From Haliotis cracherodii (lineage: Eukaryota), in assembly GCF_022045235.1 (NCBI RefSeq), contig NW_027266270.1, positions 35,526,001 to 35,590,000 on the forward strand: DNA of 64,000 bases, read 5' to 3'. A model generated the notes under the pieces. The model worked only from the letters and a program-made list of their open reading frames with translations, ran no database searches and had not been told where the DNA came from. Position 1 is the first letter of the stretch, and every line of letters begins with the position of its first letter. Below, in pieces: positions 2,721 to 44,600 of this stretch. A program made the translations under genes and the position numbers.

Positions 2721-4024
2721 GGAGCATCCAGTGCCGTGGGTCAGGCTCCGCTCCCCCAGCTGTGTCGGTGCACCATGTATACCTGCACACACGCACAAAG
2801 GTACCACTGTATGCACTGCAGGTGCTTTCTTTGCAACCTTTACTGTCGAATGAATCCCCTCCACAATTGCTTTGCTGTAATCGATCGGGACTGAGTGAAA
2901 AATATATCCTTAAGAGCCGTGATATGTATTTCATGGAAGGGCTGGAGTTCGTGGTAGGTTGACTTAATCTGTAACTTCAACCTTTGGAAACGTTTACCTT
3001 AAAGTCATAGCTAAGGAGTGTTGTGGGTAGTCCAGACGTGCAAGTGTTTGCTCGTTCCGTCGTAGACCTGGGTTCTATTCCTTATGTATGAAGTCTGAAA
3101 TTATGAACAGTTGTAGAAAAAACATGATTGTATTCTGTGTTATCAGTGTTTGGTATAATAGTTACGTCGTTTGCACGACCTGGTACCAATCAGAGTGGGC
3201 CTAGATATAAAAAGCCGGGCAAAAGAAAGTATACACTTAAAAATTGGATTTTGAACAAAACATTAAAAAAGTTATCAAAACGTTACAAGGCTGAAAACAG
3301 TCGCCGAAACACTGCAAACGTGCGGTCCAAAACACAACTATGATCCCCGTATCAAATACATCCCCGTTAAAAAACCATTACCATCCATTCGTTGCGATTT
3401 TGATTTAGATAATAAACATTCAGTTTTCAGAGGAATATATGCTTGTTTGAATGGCCTGACCCCGTTCATCAAGGCGATATTGATGCTAAGACTGTCGCAG
3501 TCCATACCCTAACACAGACTTTCAACACTCTTAGCGCTGGTGTCACTTTGTGGAACTGATTGCTCCTGACTAATATTTATCAGAGTAGAATGACGATATA
3601 TAACACTGGATAATCGAGAAAGAGACTTTTAGTTCCTTGTCTTCAAACAATCCCAATTTATTGAACATCTGATACGGGTACGCCGGGTGGCCATAGTGTT
3701 TACAGAGTCGTGTGTTATAGCGTGGTTCGCTTTTGTACCGTGCACGTTCCATAAACGGCGTTAACGTGACCCCATTAGACCTTTGAACCCCGTGAACTCC
3801 GGCCATCGACGCCACTTGACGGGAGAAGGTGCGACAGGGAGGGTGGGTGGTTCGCTCGGTATATGTTTGGTGTACTACCCTGTTGGGATTCCGGGGGCAG
3901 ATATAGGTCTCCAGTACACTATGCTTGTCGCAATATGAGGAATGAGTGGTTACAATGTGAGATATAGCTGATTGTAGGTCCTCCTATGGTGGCACCAACT
4001 CGGCGTCGATACAAGTTCTTAATT

Positions 4025-4250
4025 GTGTTTGTTTGTTATTTAACGCCAAACTAAGCAATATTCCATCTGTATGAACGCCGGTCTGTGAATATTCGAGTAC
4101 GGACCAGACAATCCACTGATGACGTTATGATCCTGGACCTGCGCCACTTGGATACGATGACATGCATCAACCAAGTCAGCGAGCCTGACCACCCGATCCC
4201 GTTAGTCGTCCCTTACGACAAGCGTGGGTTGCTGAAGACCATTTCTATTT
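4025..4250 (-). mobile_element. Retroposon family D copy
   Basis: Colinear with 30636-30897. Confidence 0.85.
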
Positions 4251-4836
4251 CTTAACTGCTGGTTATCCTGTATGGTGCAGATGTGGTTATTTTTAACATA
4301 GTTTATTGTCAGAAGACGAATGGTTCAGACACAAGTTGTTAACGTACATGGTCGTCTCTAATATACACGTTTCGTTACATAAATATTACGTCGTAGAACA
4401 GAAAGAAAATATGAAAGAAGAGAATATTTACATGTTTAACAATAACCTTATGAAACGGAGAAGTCATATAAGTGTAATGGTGATTACAGCGGCGTAAAAT
4501 AAAATCCACAGGTGTGTGTGTTTGGGGGTGTGTGGGGGGGGGGGGGGGGGGGGGGTAGTGTGGCAGCCAATCCAATTCACCGAGTTGCGTCCCTTAACGT
4601 GCCATAAACCAGTGGTCGTGGTTCGAATCCAAGATTCGCCCCGATTATGTTTCCAGATATGTCAAATTATCTGATGATTAATAGAAGCTTTAACACGCCC
4701 CATGACTGAATGCGTTCAAGAACTGCATACTAGCGTAATACAACTGAACTGTTATTGCAAACAAAAGCAACACGAAGAAATCACTACAAGAACAATAACA
4801 TGACGTGTAAGGATGCATGGATTTCTAGGCCCTCTT

Positions 4837-5009
4837 GAGGGGCGGTCGGGTAGCCTAGTGGTTAAAGCGTTCGCTCGTCACGCCGAAGACCCGGGTTCGA
4901 TTCCCGACATGGGTAAAATGTGTGAAGCCAGTTTTTCTGGTGTCCCCCGCCGTGATATTGATGTAATATTGCTAAAAGCGGCGTAAAACCTCACTCACTC
5001 ACTCACTCA
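4837..5009 (+). mobile_element. SINE family A (tRNA-Asp-like head, (TCAC)n tail), full length with TSD
   Basis: A box tagcctagtgg, B box ggttcgattcc; 12-bp TSD ctaggccctctt at 4825-4836 and 5010-5021. Confidence 0.93.
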
Positions 5010-8005: not shown

Positions 8006-8350
8006 TGTGAGGTGAGGTGAAATGGGGTTTAACGTCGCGTCCAAGATTATTGCACTTATATAGCGACGTGCATGTGTGTGTGGCTGCTTGTACTAGTCCG
8101 GACTGATGCCGATTTACACTGCTAGCACACTGAGATACCATACCGCAGTTTAACATGAATACCCCACTCAGACACAGTATACTGACTCCGAGCCGACCAG
8201 TCCTTGTTTTAGCCCCTTAATGTCGAGCGCCAGACAGGGTAACAACAATTACCGTCAATTAACGTCTTTTGGTATGACGCGGCTGGGGATCGAACCCTGG
8301 ACTTTCAGCTCTCCGGGCTGACGCTCTACCATTAAACCTCGGAGGCGGTC
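8006..8350 (-). mobile_element. SINE family B (tRNA head, central domain resembling Meta/MESC, (TCACC)n tail) with TSD
   Basis: B box ggttcgatccc on minus strand; perfect 14-bp TSD cccatatacaacgg at 7992-8005 and 8351-8364. Domain name is from recall. Confidence 0.9.
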
Positions 8351-13400: not shown

Positions 13401-14328
13401 GACTGGTTTTCCTGCGGCGCGCAACGAAAGCTGAGTTGTTAAGGTTGAGTTGGGTACACCCAGAGAGAGTGATGATTGATAAATATACAATTAAATCCGA
13501 TGGTGTTGTGTAATGGGGACAAAAGAAAATAGTATAGAATAGTTCATTTAGCTGATGAGGCTGGACAAGGAAAGGATGACACGATGCAGACATAAATAAA
13601 ATTGACAGTATCTTTTTCTCCTTTACCGCGTGAAGAATGTGGCGGTTCTAGTGTCAACCATGTCTCTTTGTTGGAAATCCGGGTCCGAATAGATCACCAA
13701 TACCTCCAGTTTGTTTCTCATGGGATGCTTGTCAGAAGAGCCGACCAAACTGAGAATCAGATGGTTACAATGTGTGACTGGCTGATTGTGTGTCGGTGTG
13801 GAGAGTTGCCAATTAATGCTGTCAGCTACTGGTACATATGACCAAGAGTCCAGTAGTTACTGGCTTCCAATGGGATATTTCTGATTGCGGCGGCGATTGA
13901 AAATGACAGTCACTCGTTTTCTCAGACATTGCTTTAGCAAATGAATTTAATACGACTGAGGCAATGTGGAATAGTGTTATGCTATTGCCTGAAACAAGAC
14001 GACCTAACGGTCATAGTCTGATGTCATTAGGAACCGAAACGACCATAATTAACATACTCATGTAGGAAAGGATAGCACTGGTACTTCTGGTGTTCACAAA
14101 GCTCGAATGTATTGATAAAAAGACTTTTTTAATGCAATTAACAACACTTAAATGCCTTAACCACTAATATCCCACTACTCAAAAGAGTAATATACTTTTA
14201 AGTTCAGGACAGATTACTGATAGTAACGTGAAAGAATCGGTCCTGTCCTTAACTTCTTTTGAGTAGTGCTTTAGTTGATTTTAAAATATCCGTACATTGC
14301 AAAGGAGGCACGTACATAATGAATAGGA

Positions 14329-29980: not shown

Positions 29981-30635
29981 TGGATGATCAAAGACTTGGT
30001 TATACACACCTGTGTCCTAACTGTTCATGATTCACGGTCATGTACATAACATGTCAATATCTTATTTATAACCCAATGCATTGTCCAGATATAATACATG
30101 CCAATATCACACATCATCATGTGAATACTTGTATATTACACACCGATATCATGTATACAAAATGTTGATCACATCAAATTCATGTATAGTGCATGAAAAT
30201 GCATGCATATTCCACACCAACATCATATATAACCCATGTCATTATGATATATATTCCATATCAGTAACATGGCAATAACACACCTCTATTCAAACCTGAC
30301 ATACACATGAACCTGCATCACAGTTGATTAAATAAATGTACATATACTTTCTAATCACAGATTCCATGGCCCTGCTCGGCTGATTCTGTCTTTGTCTTGT
30401 TTAGCTGAGGTATTCCATTTCTTTCTGGTCGGGACTGTTGGTGTCTGTTTCCCTCCATGCTTGTCAAACAAAGAGAGTAAGGCAGCTTATTTGGTGTAAA
30501 CTCCTGACAGTTGACTGATGGCTGCTGAAATAGACACAAATATTTGTCTTTAAGGAATATCATTGGTTATACATGACAATATTTTTATCTCGAGTGAATG
30601 AGTTTTTGGTCATCAGTTCCACCCATCTTCTAGAA

Positions 30636-30897
30636 CGTTTGTTTGTTGTTTAACGCCGCACTCAGCAATATTCCAGCTATATGATGGCGGTCTGTAAATA
30701 ATTGAGTCTGGACCAGAGAATCCAGTGATTGACATCATAAGCATCGATCCACGCAATTGGGATCGATGACATACATCAACCAAGTCAGGGAGCCTGACCA
30801 CCCGATCCAGTTAGTTGCCTCTTATGACAAGCATAGTCGCCTTTTACGGATAGCATGGGTTGCTGAAGACCTATTCTACCCTGGATCTTCACAGGCC
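30636..30897 (-). mobile_element. Retroposon family D (non-tRNA structured head, (AAAC)n tail), full length with TSD
   Basis: 9-bp TSD cttctagaa at 30627-30635 and 30898-30906. Other copies at about 11745-11850, 15043-15230, 18930-19110, 35970-36210, 38148-38340, 42540-42740, 43100-43362, 43765-43980, 63440-63700. Confidence 0.88.
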
Positions 30898-32547
30898 CTT
30901 CTAGAAAGTAATGTGACCAATATCTACATGTCCTAAAGGTAAAGACAACTTGGCTGGAATCTTATAGGGGTGATATTTCAAGAATAGCATTTTTCTTCAA
31001 ATCAAGAACACAACAATGAGATGCAAGAGTTGATTACAAGATCTAAAAAATGGTCTGGTCTAAAAATCATTTTGCAGATATTTTATTTTCAGAGAATCTT
31101 TCACTTGTTGTGCATGGTATTTTCTCAACTGTGGGAGGCGTATGATCCACCACCAGAATGTAGTACGTTAGCACGGACCCTCACGACCTCATCCCTAGCT
31201 ACTGGCTGTCAAACCTGCATCCCACTGATGTACAGCTTACTGGGGCTGGTTATCACCTTGAATATTCACATCAATAATCAGAGCTCTCAAATTTATTATA
31301 AAAACTACTGTTGTTTTACATATGACCACTGTATATGCTACTTGCTTGACAGCCGGCTTAGCCTACAACTAGTGGTGGAGTAATTGATTAAATAATCGGT
31401 CAATTGATCGATCTGGAGAATGTCAGCGATTATGGATGGTCTCGAGGGACTAATCGATGTTCATAAAAATGACCATGTGAAACATAAAAATAAACATTAA
31501 AAATCATTTTTTTAATTGTTATGTTTTTAAATCAAGACAAAAACAGCTGAAATAATTTTCTGGTTCGTAAACTGCAATGTTAACAACAGAGATACTCGCG
31601 CCACAAACAGGAAGTGGTAAAGCATAGAAGTGCAGGAATGCCCATGTCATCCAAACTGAGGGAACAACTGAATAGGTCTAAATATAGGAGGATGTTTTCC
31701 ATGTGGGTGTGCCTACACATCTAGTGGTGACGTAACATGCGTAAAAAAAGTTGCGCACTGTAAGTGCAATGACTGAACTGAATAAGATTTTTTATTTCCT
31801 TGGTTGGGCAAAGATTGAGGTCGGGAAACAACTTGGTTTTTACAGTCAAACCCCTGATGTAGACTATGTTGAATTGCAATGCAGTGATCAAATATTGCAG
31901 CAACACTATGCATTTGAAAATTCATGTTGATAAGATCCACACTAAAAACCCTCCAAAATCTTCAACACAAGCTAGGATTTCTACTTCATTTGGTGTAAAT
32001 CCTAACAACAAAACTTATCAATCAATGACCCCCAAAGCAAAGAAAATATAATGATCAATTGCCAAATTCATCGACAAAGACATGAAACCAGTATCGATTG
32101 TCGAATCAGAGTCACTCAGGCATATATCAGATGCTGCAACGGAATGTCAATATTCTGTCCCAAGCAATACAACGGAATGTCAATATTCTGTCCCAAGCTG
32201 ATACAACAAAATGTCAATATTCTGTCCCAAGCTGATACTACTTCAAAGAAAAAGGTTATTCTGTTTATGTATTGACCAAAAAACAGGTTGATGAAACATT
32301 AAGGGTCAGTTTGTTTCTTTGACAACTGACACTTGGACGTTGGATTCAACAGAGACCTACATGACAGTAACAGCTCACTGCATTACTGATGATTGGATAT
32401 TAACAAATTTTGTTCTTTCAACTCGGGAGCTTCAGGGAGTTTTTTTAATGTCAAGTTCAAACGATTAACAGATTATTCAATGAATCGCTGGGCACCAGAT
32501 CTGCCTCCAGCACCTTCTGTAACACACTCAGGTCATAGTCACCTGAT

Positions 32548-35600: not shown

Positions 35601-38600
35601 CACATTCTCCAGGTCCTCATGCCACTCCATCCCCGCTCTCTGACAGTGCAGCAACTACAACAACAACGCCAACTTCATCTCAGAGGCAGGCACTTCATGC
35701 TCCCTAGGGCATGTTCTAGGACAGTCTGAAGTAGGTGGCAGAGTGAGTGAGTGAATCGGGTTTTACTGACGCTTTGAACAGTATTCTAGTGATACCACGA
35801 CATGTCAGCCCTGAAAAGTACAGAGTTTCCGAAGACAAACCAGGTGTTGATACCATGAGCAACGACCAACACTGCTGGGGTATGTGACACACAATCAGTC
35901 CGAACCACCCAATCCACATTAGTCAGCTCATACTACAGGTACTCAGCACCACTTTCATCTCTCTTTTAGGTTTGTTTGTTTGGCTTGTTGTGTAACGCCA
36001 CACTCAGCAATATTCCAGCTACATGACGGTGGCCTGTAAAAAATCCAAGACTGACCAGACAATCCAGGGAACGATATAATGAGCAGCAATCCACACTGCT
36101 ATGTTGACACTATCAACCAAGTCACCAAGCCTGATGACCCAATCATCCAGTCACCTCTTACAATCAGCACAGGTTGCTGGGGACATTGTACGCCCGGGCC
36201 CCATGGGGTTTATCTTTTTAGAATCTTTCAAGGTCCTAACTAGAAACAGACATGTGCTTAACTGCTGGTCAATCAGCAATTCAATGTATTTTGCCAGCAT
36301 TTTCACAAACCTTTGAACAGCCTCTCTTTCACAGGACCCTAACCATCATTAAGACAAGGTCAGCTAAATCCCAAGTCAAGTTAAAGTATCCACTAAGTAA
36401 GTCTCTATCTCAGGGTGATACCAACATCTCTCAGGCAGGTCAGTAAATAATTTATGTTCAGTAGCTCACCTTCTCATAAACACTATCTGCACATTCTATA
36501 AGGTTTCTGCACTCTGTGATCAACTGAAACACAAAGAATATCTATTAATTGGTTATTCAGTTATGATTTCAACAACAATTTCTTTGATTTTTTAAAACAA
36601 AACCTCTGAACTTTTAGCACAATCTCAGTTTAACCAGGTGAGGTGTATACATATATGCATTTGCCAGGTGAGCTATTGGTTCATCTCCAGCTGTTACTAC
36701 TCACATCATCAAAGGACATCAGAGCTTTCTTCAGTATATCTGGCAGGTTCCCTTGTGCTTCAAGAGATGGGTACTGCAAAGAAGGTAAAACAATATGTTT
36801 TATCTAATACTAAAACTCTCAAGCCGAAAAATTTATATTAGTTTCTCCAAATCATGATGTCATACAAAATATGATTTAATAGAACAAATTGGTAAGACTC
36901 AAATATTTATAAAGAAAAAGAAGGAGTCAAATACAATGATGTTCATTTGATCCTGTTGTTACCCAGAGACTCGGTACTCCTTCACCAACACACTGACAAG
37001 GTGTTGCCTCTCATGACGTATGTCAGACTCACCACGCCTCTCATGACGTATGTCAGACTCACCTCGCCTCTCATGACGTATGTCAGACTCACCTCGCCTC
37101 TCCTGACGTATGTCAGACTCACCTCGCCTCTCATGACGTATGTCAGACTCACCTCGCCTCTCATGACGTATGTCAGACTCACCTCGCCTCTCATGACGTA
37201 TGTCAGACTCACCTCGCCTCTCATGACGTATGTCAGACTCACCTCGCCTCTCATGACGTATGTGAGACTCTGTTCTCCTGAGTTGGTGATTCTGGTGGAC
37301 AGGAGTCGGATGCACTGCTTGATGTTGGCGATGGGGGGCAGACCACACGTCTCCTTGAAGCCGCTCAGGGCCAGTTGCACGTTGTCTCGCAGGTCGGTGC
37401 CGTCCCGCAAAGGCTGGATCGCAACCTGGAGAGATGAACAATGTTTGTTTGGCAGACAGTCAATGTGTTGCAGTCATTAGGACAAAGCGGTTCACTGATG
37501 CTCCACTTTGTGTGTTACTTGACTGAGTATTGCAAAATGTAATATCGGGAAATATTTATTTGGCAATTACAAAATCGTGACGGTACTGAGATCAACGAAA
37601 AATATCATACACATACTGTGTCACAGTATGTGTATGATATGTCACAGTAAAAAGTTAAGATATTTTACAGACACTTCCTACAGTTTGTTACAGTACATTC
37701 AGATAGATTTTACTGGCACTTGGCATAGTAATACACTTATAATCTCTTAGGAGTTCAAGAGAACAATTACTAGGATGGTGAACTTCATCTGATAATAAAT
37801 CATTGCCTTGAGTGCATTTATAAATAAATACTTACTGATTTAAAAACTCTTAAAATATACTGCCTTCATTCAGTGTTCTTAGTTAATCTGTTTCTGTTTT
37901 TCATGTTGTGTCTATGTAATCTCAGATCTGTCACCAAGTCCCACCCAGTTGTTGACTACTATTGATATAGGGTACAAGCATCTGTACCAAAAAGTTGCAT
38001 TGATAGAAGTCGGAAGTTGCAAGTCATAAGTCAACAGCTTCTAAATGCCACGAGAAGACAACAAACTTTTCTCAAGTTCGAAATATGGATTGTGATACCT
38101 ATGATTTTTTTTATTGTTCCCTACAGACGGACTTGGTGGATATTAAGTTTGTTTGTTGTCCACGCTGCACTCAGCAATATTCCAACTATAAGATGGCAGT
38201 CTGCAAATAATCGAGCCTGGACCATACAATCTAGTGACATCAAGAGCATCAATCTACACAATTAGGATAAAATGATATGCATCAACCAAGTCAGCGAACC
38301 TGACCACCCGATTCCATTGCTGGCCTCTTACGACAAGCATGGGTTGCTGCCGACAAGCATGGGTTGCTGACATCAAGCATGGGTTGGTGACGACAAGCAT
38401 GGGTTGCTGACGTCAAGCATGGGTTGCTGACGTCAAGCATGGGTTGCTGCCGACAAGCATGGGTTGCTGACATCAAGCATGGGTTGCTGACAACAAGCAT
38501 GGGTTGCTGCCAACAAGCATGGGTTGCTGACGTCAAGCATGGGTTGCTGACAACAAGCATGGGTTGCTGACGTCAAGCATGGGTTGCTGACGACAAGCAT

Positions 38601-41600
38601 GGGTTGCTGCCGACAAGCATGGGTTGCTGACAACAAGCATGGGTTGCTGACGTCAAGCATGGGTTGCTGACGACAAGCATGGGTTGCTGCCGACAAGCAT
38701 GGGTTGCTGACAACAAGCATGGGTTGCTGACGACAAGCATGGGTTGCTGACATCAAGCATGGGTTGCTGACAACAAGCAAGGGTTGCTGACAACAAGCAT
38801 GGGTTACTGCCGACAAGCATGGGTTGCTGAGAACAAGCATGGGTTGCTGACGACAGATTGTAACCTGGCCCCTCACGCGGGCGGGAGTAAGTGAGCCAAG
38901 CACACCATCATGAGGCAGTTCATGACATGTTGTCCATCCCACCTTGATAACCCTTTACTATATATCATCATGTTCAACAACCTACCTTGAATGTTTCATC
39001 TATATTTTTCACTCCGATTGACTTCATGCTGGTGTAGTCCCGATACCTCTTCGTTTTCTTCACAGACAAGCCTCGTTTGTACGCCTGCTGGGGACAAGAA
39101 CCAGATAGTACTCACAAGTCTCTACACAGTCAAAGTTCTGTCAGATGTGTGAGTGTTTATTTATTTGTTGTTTATCACTGCTCTCGGCAAAATTCCTGCT
39201 ATAGAATGGCACTTGGTAAATAATCAAATCTGGGCCACACAATCCAGTGACTGACATCATGAGCATACATCTAGGCACTAATCATACTGAGACATTAAGA
39301 TTTGTATTTGGGTAAATTTGAAAACCGCCAGTATACTACAACAAACAAACTCACCCCACCCCCTCTCTTGTTGGTTATTGCTATATGTACAAACAATGTA
39401 CAGTTTTCAATGGGGTTCCCGGTGTTTGATAATAGCTGGATGTGTCGGTAACCTGCAAAAGTGGATGGAGGATAATCATAAATAAGAAACTGATAATCAT
39501 AACTTTAATTGAAACTTTAAATATTTTAACAGAAAGTTGCAATATATGTGCAAAACTAGAACCTATGACCATACAGGAAAGCTTGCACCAAGCTGTGATC
39601 CAGAACAACTTGGGAAGAGTTGTTCCCCTTAGATTGAGAATGAAAATCACTTTGTTGGAAGTTAACTGAGCATCTTTTAGCCATAATTGTACATGTCTCT
39701 GACCTGTCTCTTTATTTATTGCAATACTACAGTCATAACATCATCATCAAAACAAAAAGAACTACACAATAATTTCTCAAATAATTTTTCACCAAGTTAC
39801 TGTAGCACATCATAAATCCCTACACAATCAATGTTTCAACATAACATCTTTACCTGTTTGCATGCACTCAAATGGTATTGTGAACTGTCCAATAAATTCA
39901 TCCCCAATATAGTCGTCATCCAGAACAGTGAACCTCACCAGAGCCAGCTCTGGCAAGTTGATCTGGAACTCGAAGCTTTCATCAAAGATTGGATTGTATC
40001 CTGCAAACAAACAAAAAACCCTTATATTTTGAGGTTGAAAACAATTTAATGTTACCTTTCAACTTTGACAAGATTGACGTGAGTTTTAATGATTTATTCC
40101 AACAATAACTATTCTGCAGTAAATATTCACTGCAGACAGCAGCATACTGTGACGTCTGCTCTCACAACCCATGTACAGCAACAGGTGTATTGAAATCAAA
40201 ACCTACTAGAATTTTGAAAATGTAAACTAAAGATCAAATTCCTGAACAAGGGAGGAATTTATCATTCATTGTATTATTCATCTACTTCAATTCAATCATT
40301 ATTCAGTGTAGAGGAAGTGAGACTGTACACTAGCTTGTAAACAGTCAATCCTATTCAATGCAGTCAGGTTTTCAGCATGTATCTATTGTGTCCCAAACTG
40401 ACCTTATCTGTTGCACTTTGGCACTCATATTGCTGACAACATAAAATACTGTTCACTCCCTGTTGAAAATATAGTTAATTTTGATCATAGACCTTCAGTC
40501 CTAGTAATCACCTGGAATAACGGTGAAAGACTGGCACAATAAATTAATCATTAGAATTACATCCAAATTTTGCAAAAATGTTCATCTTAAATATTTGATA
40601 TTATTTTGTTCAAACCAAGTACTAGTGTTCAGGTTACCTGTGTACAGAACCTGTCGATGAGTGTCACTCACACCAAGTATGAAGGTTAGATAGGACTTTT
40701 TATATGGTGTATTTCACCAAGTAAATGAAAACACATTGTGATTTTCTTTGTCTGTCAGTACTTGGGGTGAAATAAATTGATGTGAGCAGGATGTTTGGTA
40801 GTAAGGCAGGTGGGTGAAAATACTAGACGGCCATACACCGCATGCCATGTCACCAGCAGTACAGACACAGAGTTCACACTTGCCATTATGCGGCATAGTT
40901 TTGGTCCTTTCCTCGGCACAGTCCGAGGGAATGCCGAACACTTCAATGGTGACATAGGGGTCCGTCACCTCCCCTTTAGCTGCGGAACCCTTGGGCTTCG
41001 GGAAGTTCTGGCCACTGATAATCTGCAACAAATACAAATCACAGACTTCATGTTTATGTACCTGGAAACCAATTATGATGATGTGCTAAAGAACTTTTAC
41101 AAAATACTTTCGAAATAACTTGACATTCTCCTTAATATGAAGTACAGGGGTGGGGTGGGGGTGTGTATCCTATTCACCTTTATATGAAGTATTTGTGGGA
41201 GACATCCTATTCACCTTTATATGAAGTATTTGGGAGAGACATCCTATTCACCTTTATATGAAGTATTTGGGGGGACACCCCTGGAATGACCTCCCTGGTG
41301 TTTGCACTGAAGTATGAGATCTCCTCCCTCATGATGGCAGGTTTCAACACAAAGCCACAGCCTCCATTCTTGTGGAACCAGCCATTGTAGAGGTCCATCA
41401 TGAGTCCTGCTGTCTGGTAGTTCAGGGCCACTGAGGAAGAAGACATCAAGTGGAGGACATGACACATGCTACAATTCCAAACACTGACACCCCCAGGTGG
41501 GGTAGGAAGAGGGGAGGTTGAGCTGGGGTTACATCACCTTCAAGGTAACTGCACCGACGTAGTGACGTGCATGTGTGTAACCCCCAAGACACACTTGCAC

Positions 41601-44600
41601 AAAGCGATCTTGTGAGCCTAGGTTAAAGTATGGGAGTTATGATCATCTTAGAGCTAAGATCGCTTTGTGCAAGTGGGTCCTGGTACAGTGTAGATGTGTT
41701 AATTTACCATTAAACACCTGTGTCATCAAAAGTTACATCAGATTTTATTTGGGAATCAAGCCATATTGCCCTTAATTCCATTTTTCTTGGAGACTCCACA
41801 ATTTCACATGTAAACAAATTCAAAATGAAATGATAATAATCATTTAATAGTTAATTTCAAAAGTGTAAAAGAAAAGTGATATTATTATCAAATTGACACC
41901 TCAATAATTGTAGTTATCAAAGTTCTTAGCAAGAAGTAGCCACTTGTAAATCTCAAAATAAATCATGGTCACCAAACAAAATGGAGGCAAAGAGAGTACT
42001 GTACTGTATCTCTGTGTTAGAGAATAGCTAAGGCAAGTGAGTCCCATGTAGTGCTATTATATCCTGATAATGTATGCCAACCAATAATCTTCATACAACA
42101 GTTGCACATACAGCTTGAATGAAACACATCTTTTTATACACAGTTGTGCTACGTACTTAAGGAACTTGATTATTTGTTTGTTCTGAAGATTAATGGTGGA
42201 CAGTACACATTAGGACAAAAAGTAACAGTTGCAAGTTGTCCCAGCAACTTGCCTATCTTTACCCCTAAACTACACATAACACATCTACACGTGCAAAGCT
42301 TCTATGTATGGGTCCTCACCCATCTGACAGCCGCAGTTCCAGAGATCCTGGGGGTTGTAGTTGCTGGAGTCGATGCGCATACCATTGGGGTAGATGCGAG
42401 ACAGGAATCGCTTGTTGTGGTTGACATATTCCTCTGGCGAGGACATCGCCAACTTCAGAGCCTGGGACTCACTGTACGAGCAAATCTCCCAACATTTTTC
42501 TGAAAAGCAAACAACCCTATATGAAGACATTTCCAAAGAATCAAGCTGTTCAAAGCAGCAGTATGATTGAGAATTGGTCTATTTTAGACAATCTAGTGAT
42601 CGACATCCTGAGCATCGCTCTACGCAATTGGAATACGATGAAATGCATCAACCAAGTCAGCGAGTCTGACCACCCAATCCTGTTAATCACCTCTCACATG
42701 GGTTGCTGAAGATCACTTCTAACCCACATTTCACAGGTCAATTATTGCAATGATAAGATTTTTGTATCATGAGTGATTATATCAATACAATACCATAGAT
42801 TCAATTGTAATGAAATACCTTCCTTAAACACAATTGTCAAGATTTCATGTATCATGTCATGAATTTAGAAATAGAAATAGAAATGACATGTTTAGGGGAA
42901 ACAACTGCTTCATTGTTTGTGCAATAAGCAGCCCTGACATTACAAAGAAAATCATGTTATATCTTACCATTAATGTCTTAATGTATCAGATTGTGTACAT
43001 TTTCATGACCTTACTCCCGTTCCACAAAGCGATCTTATTAAGGGCTAAGACTGCCGTAAGTCTATGTTAAAGTATGGGAGTTAAGATCGTTTTAGCTACG
43101 TTTGTTTGTTGGTTAACACCGCACTCAGCAACATTCCAGCTCTATGTAATTTCTAAAATTATAAAATTCTGTAAATTATCGAGTCTGGACCAGACAATCC
43201 AGTGACTGATATCATGAGTATCGATCTATGCAATTGGGATACAATGTATACAAGTCAATGAGCCTGACCACCAGATCCCTTTAATCGCCTCTAACGACAA
43301 GCATAGTCACCATTTACAGCAAGCATGGGTTGTTGAAGACCTTTGAAGATCTTCACGGTCTCTTAGCGCTATGATCGCTTTGTGGAAAGGGGCCCTGATG
43401 ACTACTGTGATATGTTCAGAGGACATTACAGTTTACACAGGAAGAAGGGCATGGAGTCTTAATGTCATATATGTCTTAGCAAGGGAATTATTAGACTTAT
43501 GCTTAGTTACTGAAAATATATAATTTTGAAAGAAACAGATAACTCCATTTAAATTGAAAAGAAGCCTGGGCCAGTGAGATGGAAGATTCAGAACCTGTGG
43601 GAAATCTAGACTTGCTCCATGTATGGTCGTAGCATTACAGTAAGGGTTGTGAGGAAGGGAAAATAATATGGTTCAGGGACTTGAGGTAGATGAGTGAACT
43701 AAGTTTAATATAGCTGTTTCTTCTTGTGTAAGTAGAACAGGTATCCATGGTCTCTTGTTTTTTGTTTAATGTTTAAATGCAGTTTCCAGCTATATGATGG
43801 CAGCCTGCAAATAATCAAGTCTGAACCAGTGATTGCTATTGTGAGCAACAATCCACACAATCAAGGTACGAGACCACACAAACAACCAAATCACCAAGAT
43901 TGACCACCTGATGCATTGGCTGCCTCTTACGACCAGCACAGGTAACTGGGGACCAATTCTACCCCGGAATCCCCACCCAAGGCATTTGAGCAATTGACTT
44001 GATCTTGCATCTGTTTGTGATGTGTGCTACTGATGGGACAGAATACGTTTTCAAGAACACCTGACACTATCTGATAATGATATAATTGAAATCGTACAAT
44101 CGACTCTTAGAAGAGATTTCTTCTAAAAATGGAAAGGGTATAATCTTTTTTATTAAGGACTCACGGTTCTGCTGGGAAACCTGAAAGTCTTCAAATCTCT
44201 TGGACACACAGTAGACAACCATGTCAGACAATTCTTTGACCAGCTTGTGCTTCTTGACCGACCCCTCCTGAAACACCAGCATCCAGTAGCATCCAGGACA
44301 ACATCCATACCAACCACACACATGACATAGAAAACTAGACCACAAAATAGTTCTGAAAATGGAAATAGCCATGAACAGATGCATTTCTCTACCAACAGGC
44401 CATGTGCTGAAGGCCATCAGGGTAAACAAATGCATGCACAACAGATAGCCATGGCAGTTTACAGCCAGTTGGTTGCATAGTTTGGCAGAAGCAGTGCAGT
44501 TCCTTTTCCTTGGGGTCTCCATGAGATAGCATAAGAAGCATGCAACTTGGCAGTAGGCAGGTCCCTCTGCATGTTTCACTGACTGAAATCATACAGTATA

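Follow-up and report, generated by a model that had tools for sequence, protein, structure and literature searches.

A tRNA-less SINE of Haliotis cracherodii begins with a conserved head, predicted to fold as a double pseudoknot, that recurs at LINE 5' ends and in RNA-virus 3' UTRs

How does a SINE without a tRNA head come by a precise 5' end, and what is the conserved sequence at that end for? The question is posed by a copy on contig NW_027266270.1 of Haliotis cracherodii (assembly GCF_022045235.1), within the 64,000-nucleotide stretch analyzed here (35,526,001 to 35,590,000; hereafter the window, whose numbering is used below). The window is repeat-rich animal DNA from a genome of 1.18 Gb. 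The tRNA-less element occupies 262 bp of the minus strand (30636..30897, read from 30897 to 30636) between two exact 9-bp copies of its TSD (5' copy at 30898..30906, 3' copy at 30627..30635). The start motif of the family is GG/GA-CC(C/T)G. Among 64 near-full-length copies examined, a TSD was scored in 30; in 15 of these it ends immediately before the first G (in the others 1-4 bases to either side), which bears out the direct start at G(A/G)CC(C/T) read by the first-pass annotation. The tRNA/Rfam scan of the window gave no tRNA match at the element, as expected from the proposed absence of a tRNA head. The claim that Pol III boxes are lacking holds for the A box, of which none was found, but not entirely for the B box, as a single loose B-box-like 9-mer is present in the body. 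The body itself (30683..30806, minus strand) is of an origin that was not found, and gave no BLAST match to intact LINE bodies in 20 fetched stretches. It is followed by a 3' tail and then (CAAA)n (30636..30682, minus strand), resembling the 3' ends of Nimb-like LINEs. Among the fetched LINEs, no direct partner ending in (CAAA)n was found; their tails resemble that of the SINE but close with (ACTC)n.

The window contains 24 related pieces (nhmmer) and 8 heads at E<0.002 (covariance model). Genome-wide, an 18-mer of hairpin 3 (see below) has 19,734 exact matches, versus 0 for the reversed control, and 27 heads in twenty 10-kb stretches chosen by round coordinates extrapolate to ~1.6 x 10^5 per genome. 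The focal copy is itself decayed, and carries a 21-nt duplication of hairpin 3 that is present in 57 of 73 sampled copies. Other minus-strand copies in the window include two older-subfamily heads with a G-C-rich helix B (43903..43982, 39 bits; 36134..36210, 28.7 bits) and two further matches of the covariance model, one to a 5'-truncated copy without the hairpin-3 duplication (4189..4266) and one to a copy that has lost part of the hairpin 1 loop (43268..43362). In three small-RNA runs of very low coverage (20 reads on the focal copy, 121 on a better one) no sense pile-up was seen at +1. A 31-nt antisense small RNA starting with U, piRNA-like, maps to the 3' body of a SINE at L027:1675-1705 (63 and 9 molecules, in two of the three runs).

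Several other repeats of the window touch on this family. Old heads on another body (3876-3947 and 13664-13761, plus strand) suggest a second LP-SINE family. Three SINEs of other families are tRNA-headed (4844-4915, 8275-8346 and 14437-14508), and those at ~4.9 kb and ~14.4 kb have the same type of 3' tail. At 38330-38855, the part of a SINE head that holds hairpin 2 has given rise to a minisatellite of 26 copies of 20 bp. The first ~50 nt of the head are often arrayed in tandem (C1:4975493-4975873 of this genome; L020, L041 and L060), a pattern that template jumping, repeated near hairpin 3, would be expected to produce.

In type, the SINE is already known. LP ('LINE promoter') SINEs were described by Matetovici et al. 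(2016, PMC4758252) for Haliotis, Littorina, oysters and scallops. The Haliotis members, Hdi_LP and Hmi_LP, are like the present element tRNA-less, TSD-flanked and ~255 bp long, with a ~70-bp LINE-derived head (PMC4758252); the comparison with Hdi_LP is one of length (255 bp) and description. The variable TSDs and the 3' tandem repeat are LP-SINE traits as well, whereas the hexamer AATATA, given in the accessible part of that paper as preceding the repeat in Haliotis, is absent from the last bases of this copy. Compared by eye with the scallop head printed in Suppl. Fig. S2, the present head agrees in its 5' C-run, in the AGAAT block and in the TCGTAAGAGGCGACTAA block, and by this sequence likeness it is matched to the published LP-SINE head. 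The same authors report the ~70-bp head as common to Nimb-17_LMi, I-3_DR and RTE-9_CPB, presume it to be a LINE promoter and mention the promoter/ribozyme of L1Tc as an analogy (PMC4758252). The match to a described family, a point that the first-pass annotation had left for checking, thus exists for the family type and the head but not for the structure; the accessible text of the paper gives no structure, viral occurrence or upstream HDV-like ribozyme. In the open-licence PMC and bioRxiv literature, no prior print of the double-pseudoknot model, the viral copies or the ribozyme-plus-module arrangement was found.

Judged from sequence comparison, the head is a conserved RNA structure of ~70 nt. 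It is predicted to be a double pseudoknot, composed of two stacked pseudoknots and a T-loop hairpin (all positions on the minus strand). Strand A (30892..30895) is predicted to pair with strand A' (30880..30883) in the loop of hairpin 1, forming pseudoknot 1. The stem of hairpin 1, helix B, is built from a 5' strand at 30884..30891 and a 3' strand at 30864..30871. Between strand A' and the latter runs a conserved A-rich AGAAT linker (30872..30879), just upstream of which other families have insertions of up to ~65 nt; the spacing of the blocks in the head varies among families by up to the same amount. Hairpin 2 (30852..30864) consists of helix C and a loop with strand D5 (30856-30860). Hairpin 3 is present as a first copy (30836..30851) and, through the subfamily duplication, a second, decayed one (30814..30829). 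Strand D3 (30807..30810), which across families pairs with the hairpin 2 loop (pseudoknot 2), is also decayed here. The loop of hairpin 3 has the form U-A-N-N-A-G-G, kept across families, which we take to be the T-loop pattern. With a hairpin 3 of no more than 4-6 bp, the fold probably falls well short of the size of a tRNA.

The model was evaluated on 24 retroelement and viral representatives, picked by hand from 253 heads in 35 clusters with the exclusion of truncated and singleton decayed copies. In an alignment-free swap test, the duplex energy of a strand with its own partner was compared with that with a foreign partner, and p was obtained by permutation. The own and foreign energies are -8.66 and -5.00 kcal/mol for helix B, -3.64 and -1.64 kcal/mol for helix C, and -6.65 and -4.39 kcal/mol for helix D (hairpin-2 loop and the strand 3' of hairpin 3), with p = 5e-5 in each case; in a 15-member subset of less related rows all three stay at p <= 1e-4. 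Helix A (5' strand and hairpin-1 loop; own energy -7.09) is near-invariant and gives no covariation signal (p 0.43). In controls on unrelated segment pairs, p exceeded 0.05 in 15 of 16 cases and was 0.044 in the other. In 3 of the 24 representatives helix D is weak or missing. L403, a virus that came up once the model had been fixed, carries a different pair of D strands, again complementary to each other.

The three hairpins recognized by the first-pass annotation hold across the 24 representatives. It had further placed them within a closing helix, CCCGT/ACGGG, and joined two of their loops by a GGGT/ACCC kissing interaction. Both can form in the focal family, and neither covaries across families: own and foreign energies are -4.15 and -4.19 kcal/mol for the closing helix (p 0.55) and -6.05 and -6.02 kcal/mol for the kissing loop (p 0.45). 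Covariation is therefore found in the head, in helices B, C and D, but not in the two elements proposed at the outset. Energetically, the double pseudoknot is the better wiring in 20 of the 24 rows, equals the alternative in one and is the worse in three. The focal SINE family is among the three, its two wirings being almost equal, with the closing-helix/kissing wiring favored by 0.5 kcal/mol (-12.4 vs -11.9). In a plain MAFFT alignment of 18 non-viral rows, with offsets chosen by hand and rows shifted by 1-2 columns, helix A is 88.4% paired, helix D 73.6% (two-sided changes in 4/4 pairs) and the closing helix 44.8% (changes on both sides in 0/5 pairs), while pairing in the kissing G/C runs reaches 92.6% for three pairs, one of which shows a two-sided change, so that an alternative conformer is possible. 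Nested folding gives the closing helix for the unduplicated SINE head because it cannot form pseudoknots, and that helix was not counted as support, pseudoknots lying outside such folding.

Of the individual compensatory changes reported earlier, those from A-U to G-C in hairpin 1 are real (copies at ~43975 and ~36205). The one from U-G to U-A, at 4200-4250, was not confirmed: a single decayed copy shows it, and both the U and the G are invariant in all 23 aligned rows. For helix A, a within-family test of CpG haplotypes was null (single changes: wobble-keeping 1,649 + 1,065 vs pair-breaking 1,349 + 1,271), and the apparent U-A pair of the focal copy in this helix is therefore no evidence. The double change in helix A was counted 353 times; since other double changes are as frequent among the 100 matches listed, it is inseparable from an age effect. 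No Rfam family matched the head at E<=1, either in the window or in 12 related loci.

A homologous head lies upstream of ORF1/ORF2 (endonuclease and RT) in LINEs of this genome and of others. A piece of the ORF1 of L106, where a zinc-knuckle frame of LINE ORF1 type follows the head, gave 150 scored matches in this genome, and the head was located upstream of ORF1 in 29 of 30 LINE loci fetched. The head-bearing LINEs of this genome are ~6 kb long, with endonuclease and RT. This common head at the 5' ends of Nimb-like LINEs, together with the covariation of three helices, upholds the suggestion of a structured RNA derived from a LINE 5' UTR. Directly before the head, with no spacer, 27 of the 29 loci have an intact 58-nt HDV-like ribozyme, and the other two have a deletion. 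Its parts, as read from the sequence, are P1 with a G1-U wobble, P2, P3/L3, P1.1 and J4/2 GCTAA. RF02682 matches the same place in 5 of 6 of these LINE loci at 27.5-29 bits, below the gathering score of 44, and the TSD abuts the first G (G1) of the ribozyme in 12 of 15 cases. These features fit an HDV-like ribozyme that defines the 5' end of the LINEs. R2 also carries an HDV-like ribozyme. The HDV-like ribozymes of non-LTR elements, such as Pr77 of L1Tc in the accessible descriptions, are like the 58 nt before the LINE head, a part that the SINE is without, and have a different strand order from the head.

Genome-wide, there are 608 exact copies of a 17-mer of the LINE head and 864 of the ribozyme start. 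No LINE copy starting at the head was seen among the 608 exact heads, with a search pattern that sees ~56% of random flanks; this pattern returned three heads without the last TT of the ribozyme, and in all three the ribozyme is still upstream. Over 40 ungapped copies of 45, LINE identity is 97% in the ribozyme, 92% in the head and ~60% further downstream. In these copies the core pairs of the head are fixed or compensated, while unpaired sites vary by subfamily. One pair of hairpin 3 is G-C in 16 copies, G-U in 15, U-A in 8 and other in 1, and at one terminal pair of helix D, 15 of the 40 have U-U. As no copy starts at the head and the pairs are conserved, the selected role of the fold in LINEs would not be making or guarding a 5' end.

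The same observations bear on the proposal that the head is a new self-cleaving ribozyme cutting its own 5' edge, which we consider highly improbable. A compact double pseudoknot at a precise 5' end without Pol III boxes would suit such an activity, and the head occurs in the LINEs L106, L339 and L385 without a preceding HDV-like ribozyme. In the LINEs of this genome, however, a cut at the head would strip away the HDV-like ribozyme, whereas the TSDs abut G1 in 12 of 15 and none of the 608 heads was seen to begin a copy. Moreover, no conserved bases are found at the would-be cleavage site, in the HDV-like 'CTAA' the C is a paired base of hairpin 3 and is followed by a variable one, and no ribozyme family in Rfam matches the head. 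The unclassified ribozyme of the first-pass annotation is thus unlikely.

Three specific cleavage readings were tried and set aside. An HDV-like reading of the head itself leaves ~19 nt between D5 and CTAA, and neither the strand order P1-P2-P3-P1.1-P4-J4/2 nor the unpaired C is present. RNase P-type processing and self-cleavage both predict LINE copies starting at the head, and none was seen among the 608. A resemblance to pistol or hatchet ribozymes was dropped, as the strand order does not fit.

Some features of the LINEs are recorded here in their own right. Divergent LINE families share a minimal 58-nt HDV-like ribozyme start with almost no P4 (L355:393-449, L381:1601-1658). The LINEs are densely clustered and nested (C2:20.8-21.75 Mb, C3:30 Mb, C6:4-5.5 Mb, C23:35 Mb, C67:54 Mb), with a head every ~10 kb on C2, and such regions are possibly piRNA-cluster-like. 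Further downstream in LINE 5' UTRs there is a second conserved block, GGGAT..TGG.GG (L106:6280-6320, L339, L381:1770-1795); it resembles the sequence right after the SINE head, and the SINE may stem from a deletion between the blocks.

Beyond this genome, an exact 17-mer occurs in at least 120 metagenome loci, falling into several unrelated repeat families. In viral contigs, five loci were found by pattern, and three more of the 20 found by a looser pattern are real. A model built from the 18 non-viral rows scores these eight loci at 40-70 bits and the other 19 pattern-matched viral loci at 14.6 bits at most. The eight represent six RNA viruses and one 212-kb DNA virus, two loci being near-identical. 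All viral and metagenome loci were found via the hairpin-3 pattern, so the invariance of hairpin 3 is partly built in. Pfam identifies RdRP_3 in three of the RNA viruses, RdRP_4 in one and a peptidase-A21 capsid in one, and gives no match in one; the RdRP_3 and RdRP_4 groups are, we presume, largely uncapped. In 6/6 RNA viruses the module lies in the 3' UTR in sense orientation, separated from the last long ORF by 3, 9, 21, 71, 98 and 196 nt; the contig ends 1-106 nt away. One virus has a tandem second copy, which is cut off.

In the DNA virus (L393:2480-2558) the module lies between genes, near a NAD-dependent ligase gene, and helix D is not evident; it may be either a captured SINE head or a functional element. 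Phage records gave no module match, and a 14-mer scan of viral contigs was discarded, its matches being mostly chance among those listed. Three GTDB matches, all in symbiont assemblies and one of them a plain LINE, were read as host DNA. At L339 (NZ_JRAA01000003.1:518.9-523 kb) a full Nimb-like LINE stands between bacterial genes of a symbiont assembly, likely as mis-joined host DNA.

The location in RNA viruses excludes a role that is exercised in DNA only. This weighs on the idea, proposed for LP-SINEs (PMC4758252), of a head that acts above all as an internal promoter of LINE origin, with the fold as a secondary feature. A promoter would account for SINE transcription, the first conserved base is mostly a purine in the SINE and in 4/4 other families, and a 77-nt segment of L1Tc is, in the accessible descriptions, both promoter and structured RNA. 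Yet the module is found in viruses without a DNA stage, the spacing of its conserved blocks is variable and its conservation tracks base pairing, and we regard a mainly promoter function as unlikely. We give slightly less credence still to a site at which the element's own polymerase or RNP protein (LINE ORF1p/ORF2p, viral RdRp) would bind for packaging or replication. [quoted passage not shown] Against it, the same short loops accompany reverse transcriptases and unrelated RdRp families, which points to a common host partner; part of the loop invariance comes from the exact-pattern searches.

If self-cleavage and the guarding of a 5' end are disfavored in LINEs and the fold is nevertheless selected, another job, one that fits RNA viruses too, has to be sought. 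Alu provides a precedent for a SINE that docks on ribosomes. The reading that we favor, as a tentative one drawn largely by analogy, is that the head is a ribosome-recruiting module for uncapped RNA, shared by the SINE, LINE 5' ends and RNA-virus 3' UTRs. In the predicted wiring of the head, the loop of hairpin 1 pairs with an upstream strand and that of hairpin 2 pairs at the base of hairpin 3. According to the available part of PMC5336357, the TCV TSS (H4a/psi3, H4b/psi2, H5) also has three hairpins and two pseudoknots, with the same connectivity: loop 1 pairs upstream and loop 2 at the base of hairpin 3. The TSS binds 60S/80S ribosomes, and a non-translated satellite RNA also needs it (PMC5336357, PMC5712577); both it and the viral module are positioned near the 3' end of (+)RNA viruses, and its retention by a non-coding satellite RNA is reminiscent of the head in a SINE. 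Enhancers of the 3' type can act at 5' ends (PMC5712577). HDV-type cleavage leaves an uncapped RNA with 5'-OH (PMC3383444), which needs cap-independent translation, and in the proposed mechanism the cleaved LINE RNA would be translated through the adjoining head. It is this TSS-like wiring, combined with the uncapped state of HDV-cut RNA, that leads us to favor ribosome recruitment. The two RNAs also differ. The head is ~70 nt long against ~100 nt for the TSS, its third hairpin is very short with a T-loop-like loop, no sequence match was found, and it is placed at retroelement 5' ends as well. In addition, the TSS needs an upstream A-run for psi3 (accessible part of PMC5336357), and none precedes strand A in the representatives.

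Ribosome recruitment leaves unexplained that the SINE begins 1-2 nt before strand A, as four other repeat families do, and it needs a second property, an internal promoter or exonuclease stalling, for the formation of the SINE 5' end. The starts are better explained by an exoribonuclease roadblock similar to xrRNAs, in which Xrn1/2 would trim read-through host transcripts to the SINE 5' end and give rise to viral subgenomic RNA. The viral positions are also suggestive, with three of six copies 3, 9 and 21 nt after a stop codon and one in tandem. The wiring of class 1 xrRNAs differs from that of the head. Class 3 xrRNAs (ST9a, RCNMV type) are, in the accessible description (PMC12397905), closer, as they brace a pseudoknot with a T-loop and occur at the start of viral 3' UTRs; in them, however, a single stem-loop carries both the T-loop and the strand of the one pseudoknot in its apical loop, with an AGY anchor on the 3' side, whereas the head is predicted to have two pseudoknots and a separate T-loop hairpin. 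Furthermore, a roadblock should rescue LINE RNAs that bear the HDV-like ribozyme as copies starting at the head, and among the 608 none was seen, though the fold is conserved. A roadblock is on balance doubtful, if clearly more credible than a promoter or a polymerase site, and it could coexist with the ribosome recruitment that we prefer.

In its widest form the proposal, which we regard as possible but doubtful, is that of an undescribed RNA class of ~70 nt with a double pseudoknot, moving among animal LINEs, SINEs, several RNA-virus lineages and one large DNA virus. It would recruit ribosomes and perhaps stop Xrn1, and would repeatedly have replaced the tRNA heads of SINEs. SINE heads as a rule derive from Pol III RNAs, and LP-SINEs depart from this rule; why several LINE clades have no more than the first ~70 bp in common was a question left by the work of 2016. 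With a double-pseudoknot model, a location in viral 3' UTRs and a setting right behind a ribozyme, it can be taken up in a few simple assays. If the Xrn1 block is true, it would be a route to a SINE without a promoter. If ribosome recruitment is true, it would link translation enhancers of plant-virus type to animal retrotransposons, show how ribozyme-cut LINE RNA gets translated and mean that, as part of such an RNA class, a translation enhancer of viral type serves as the head of a SINE.
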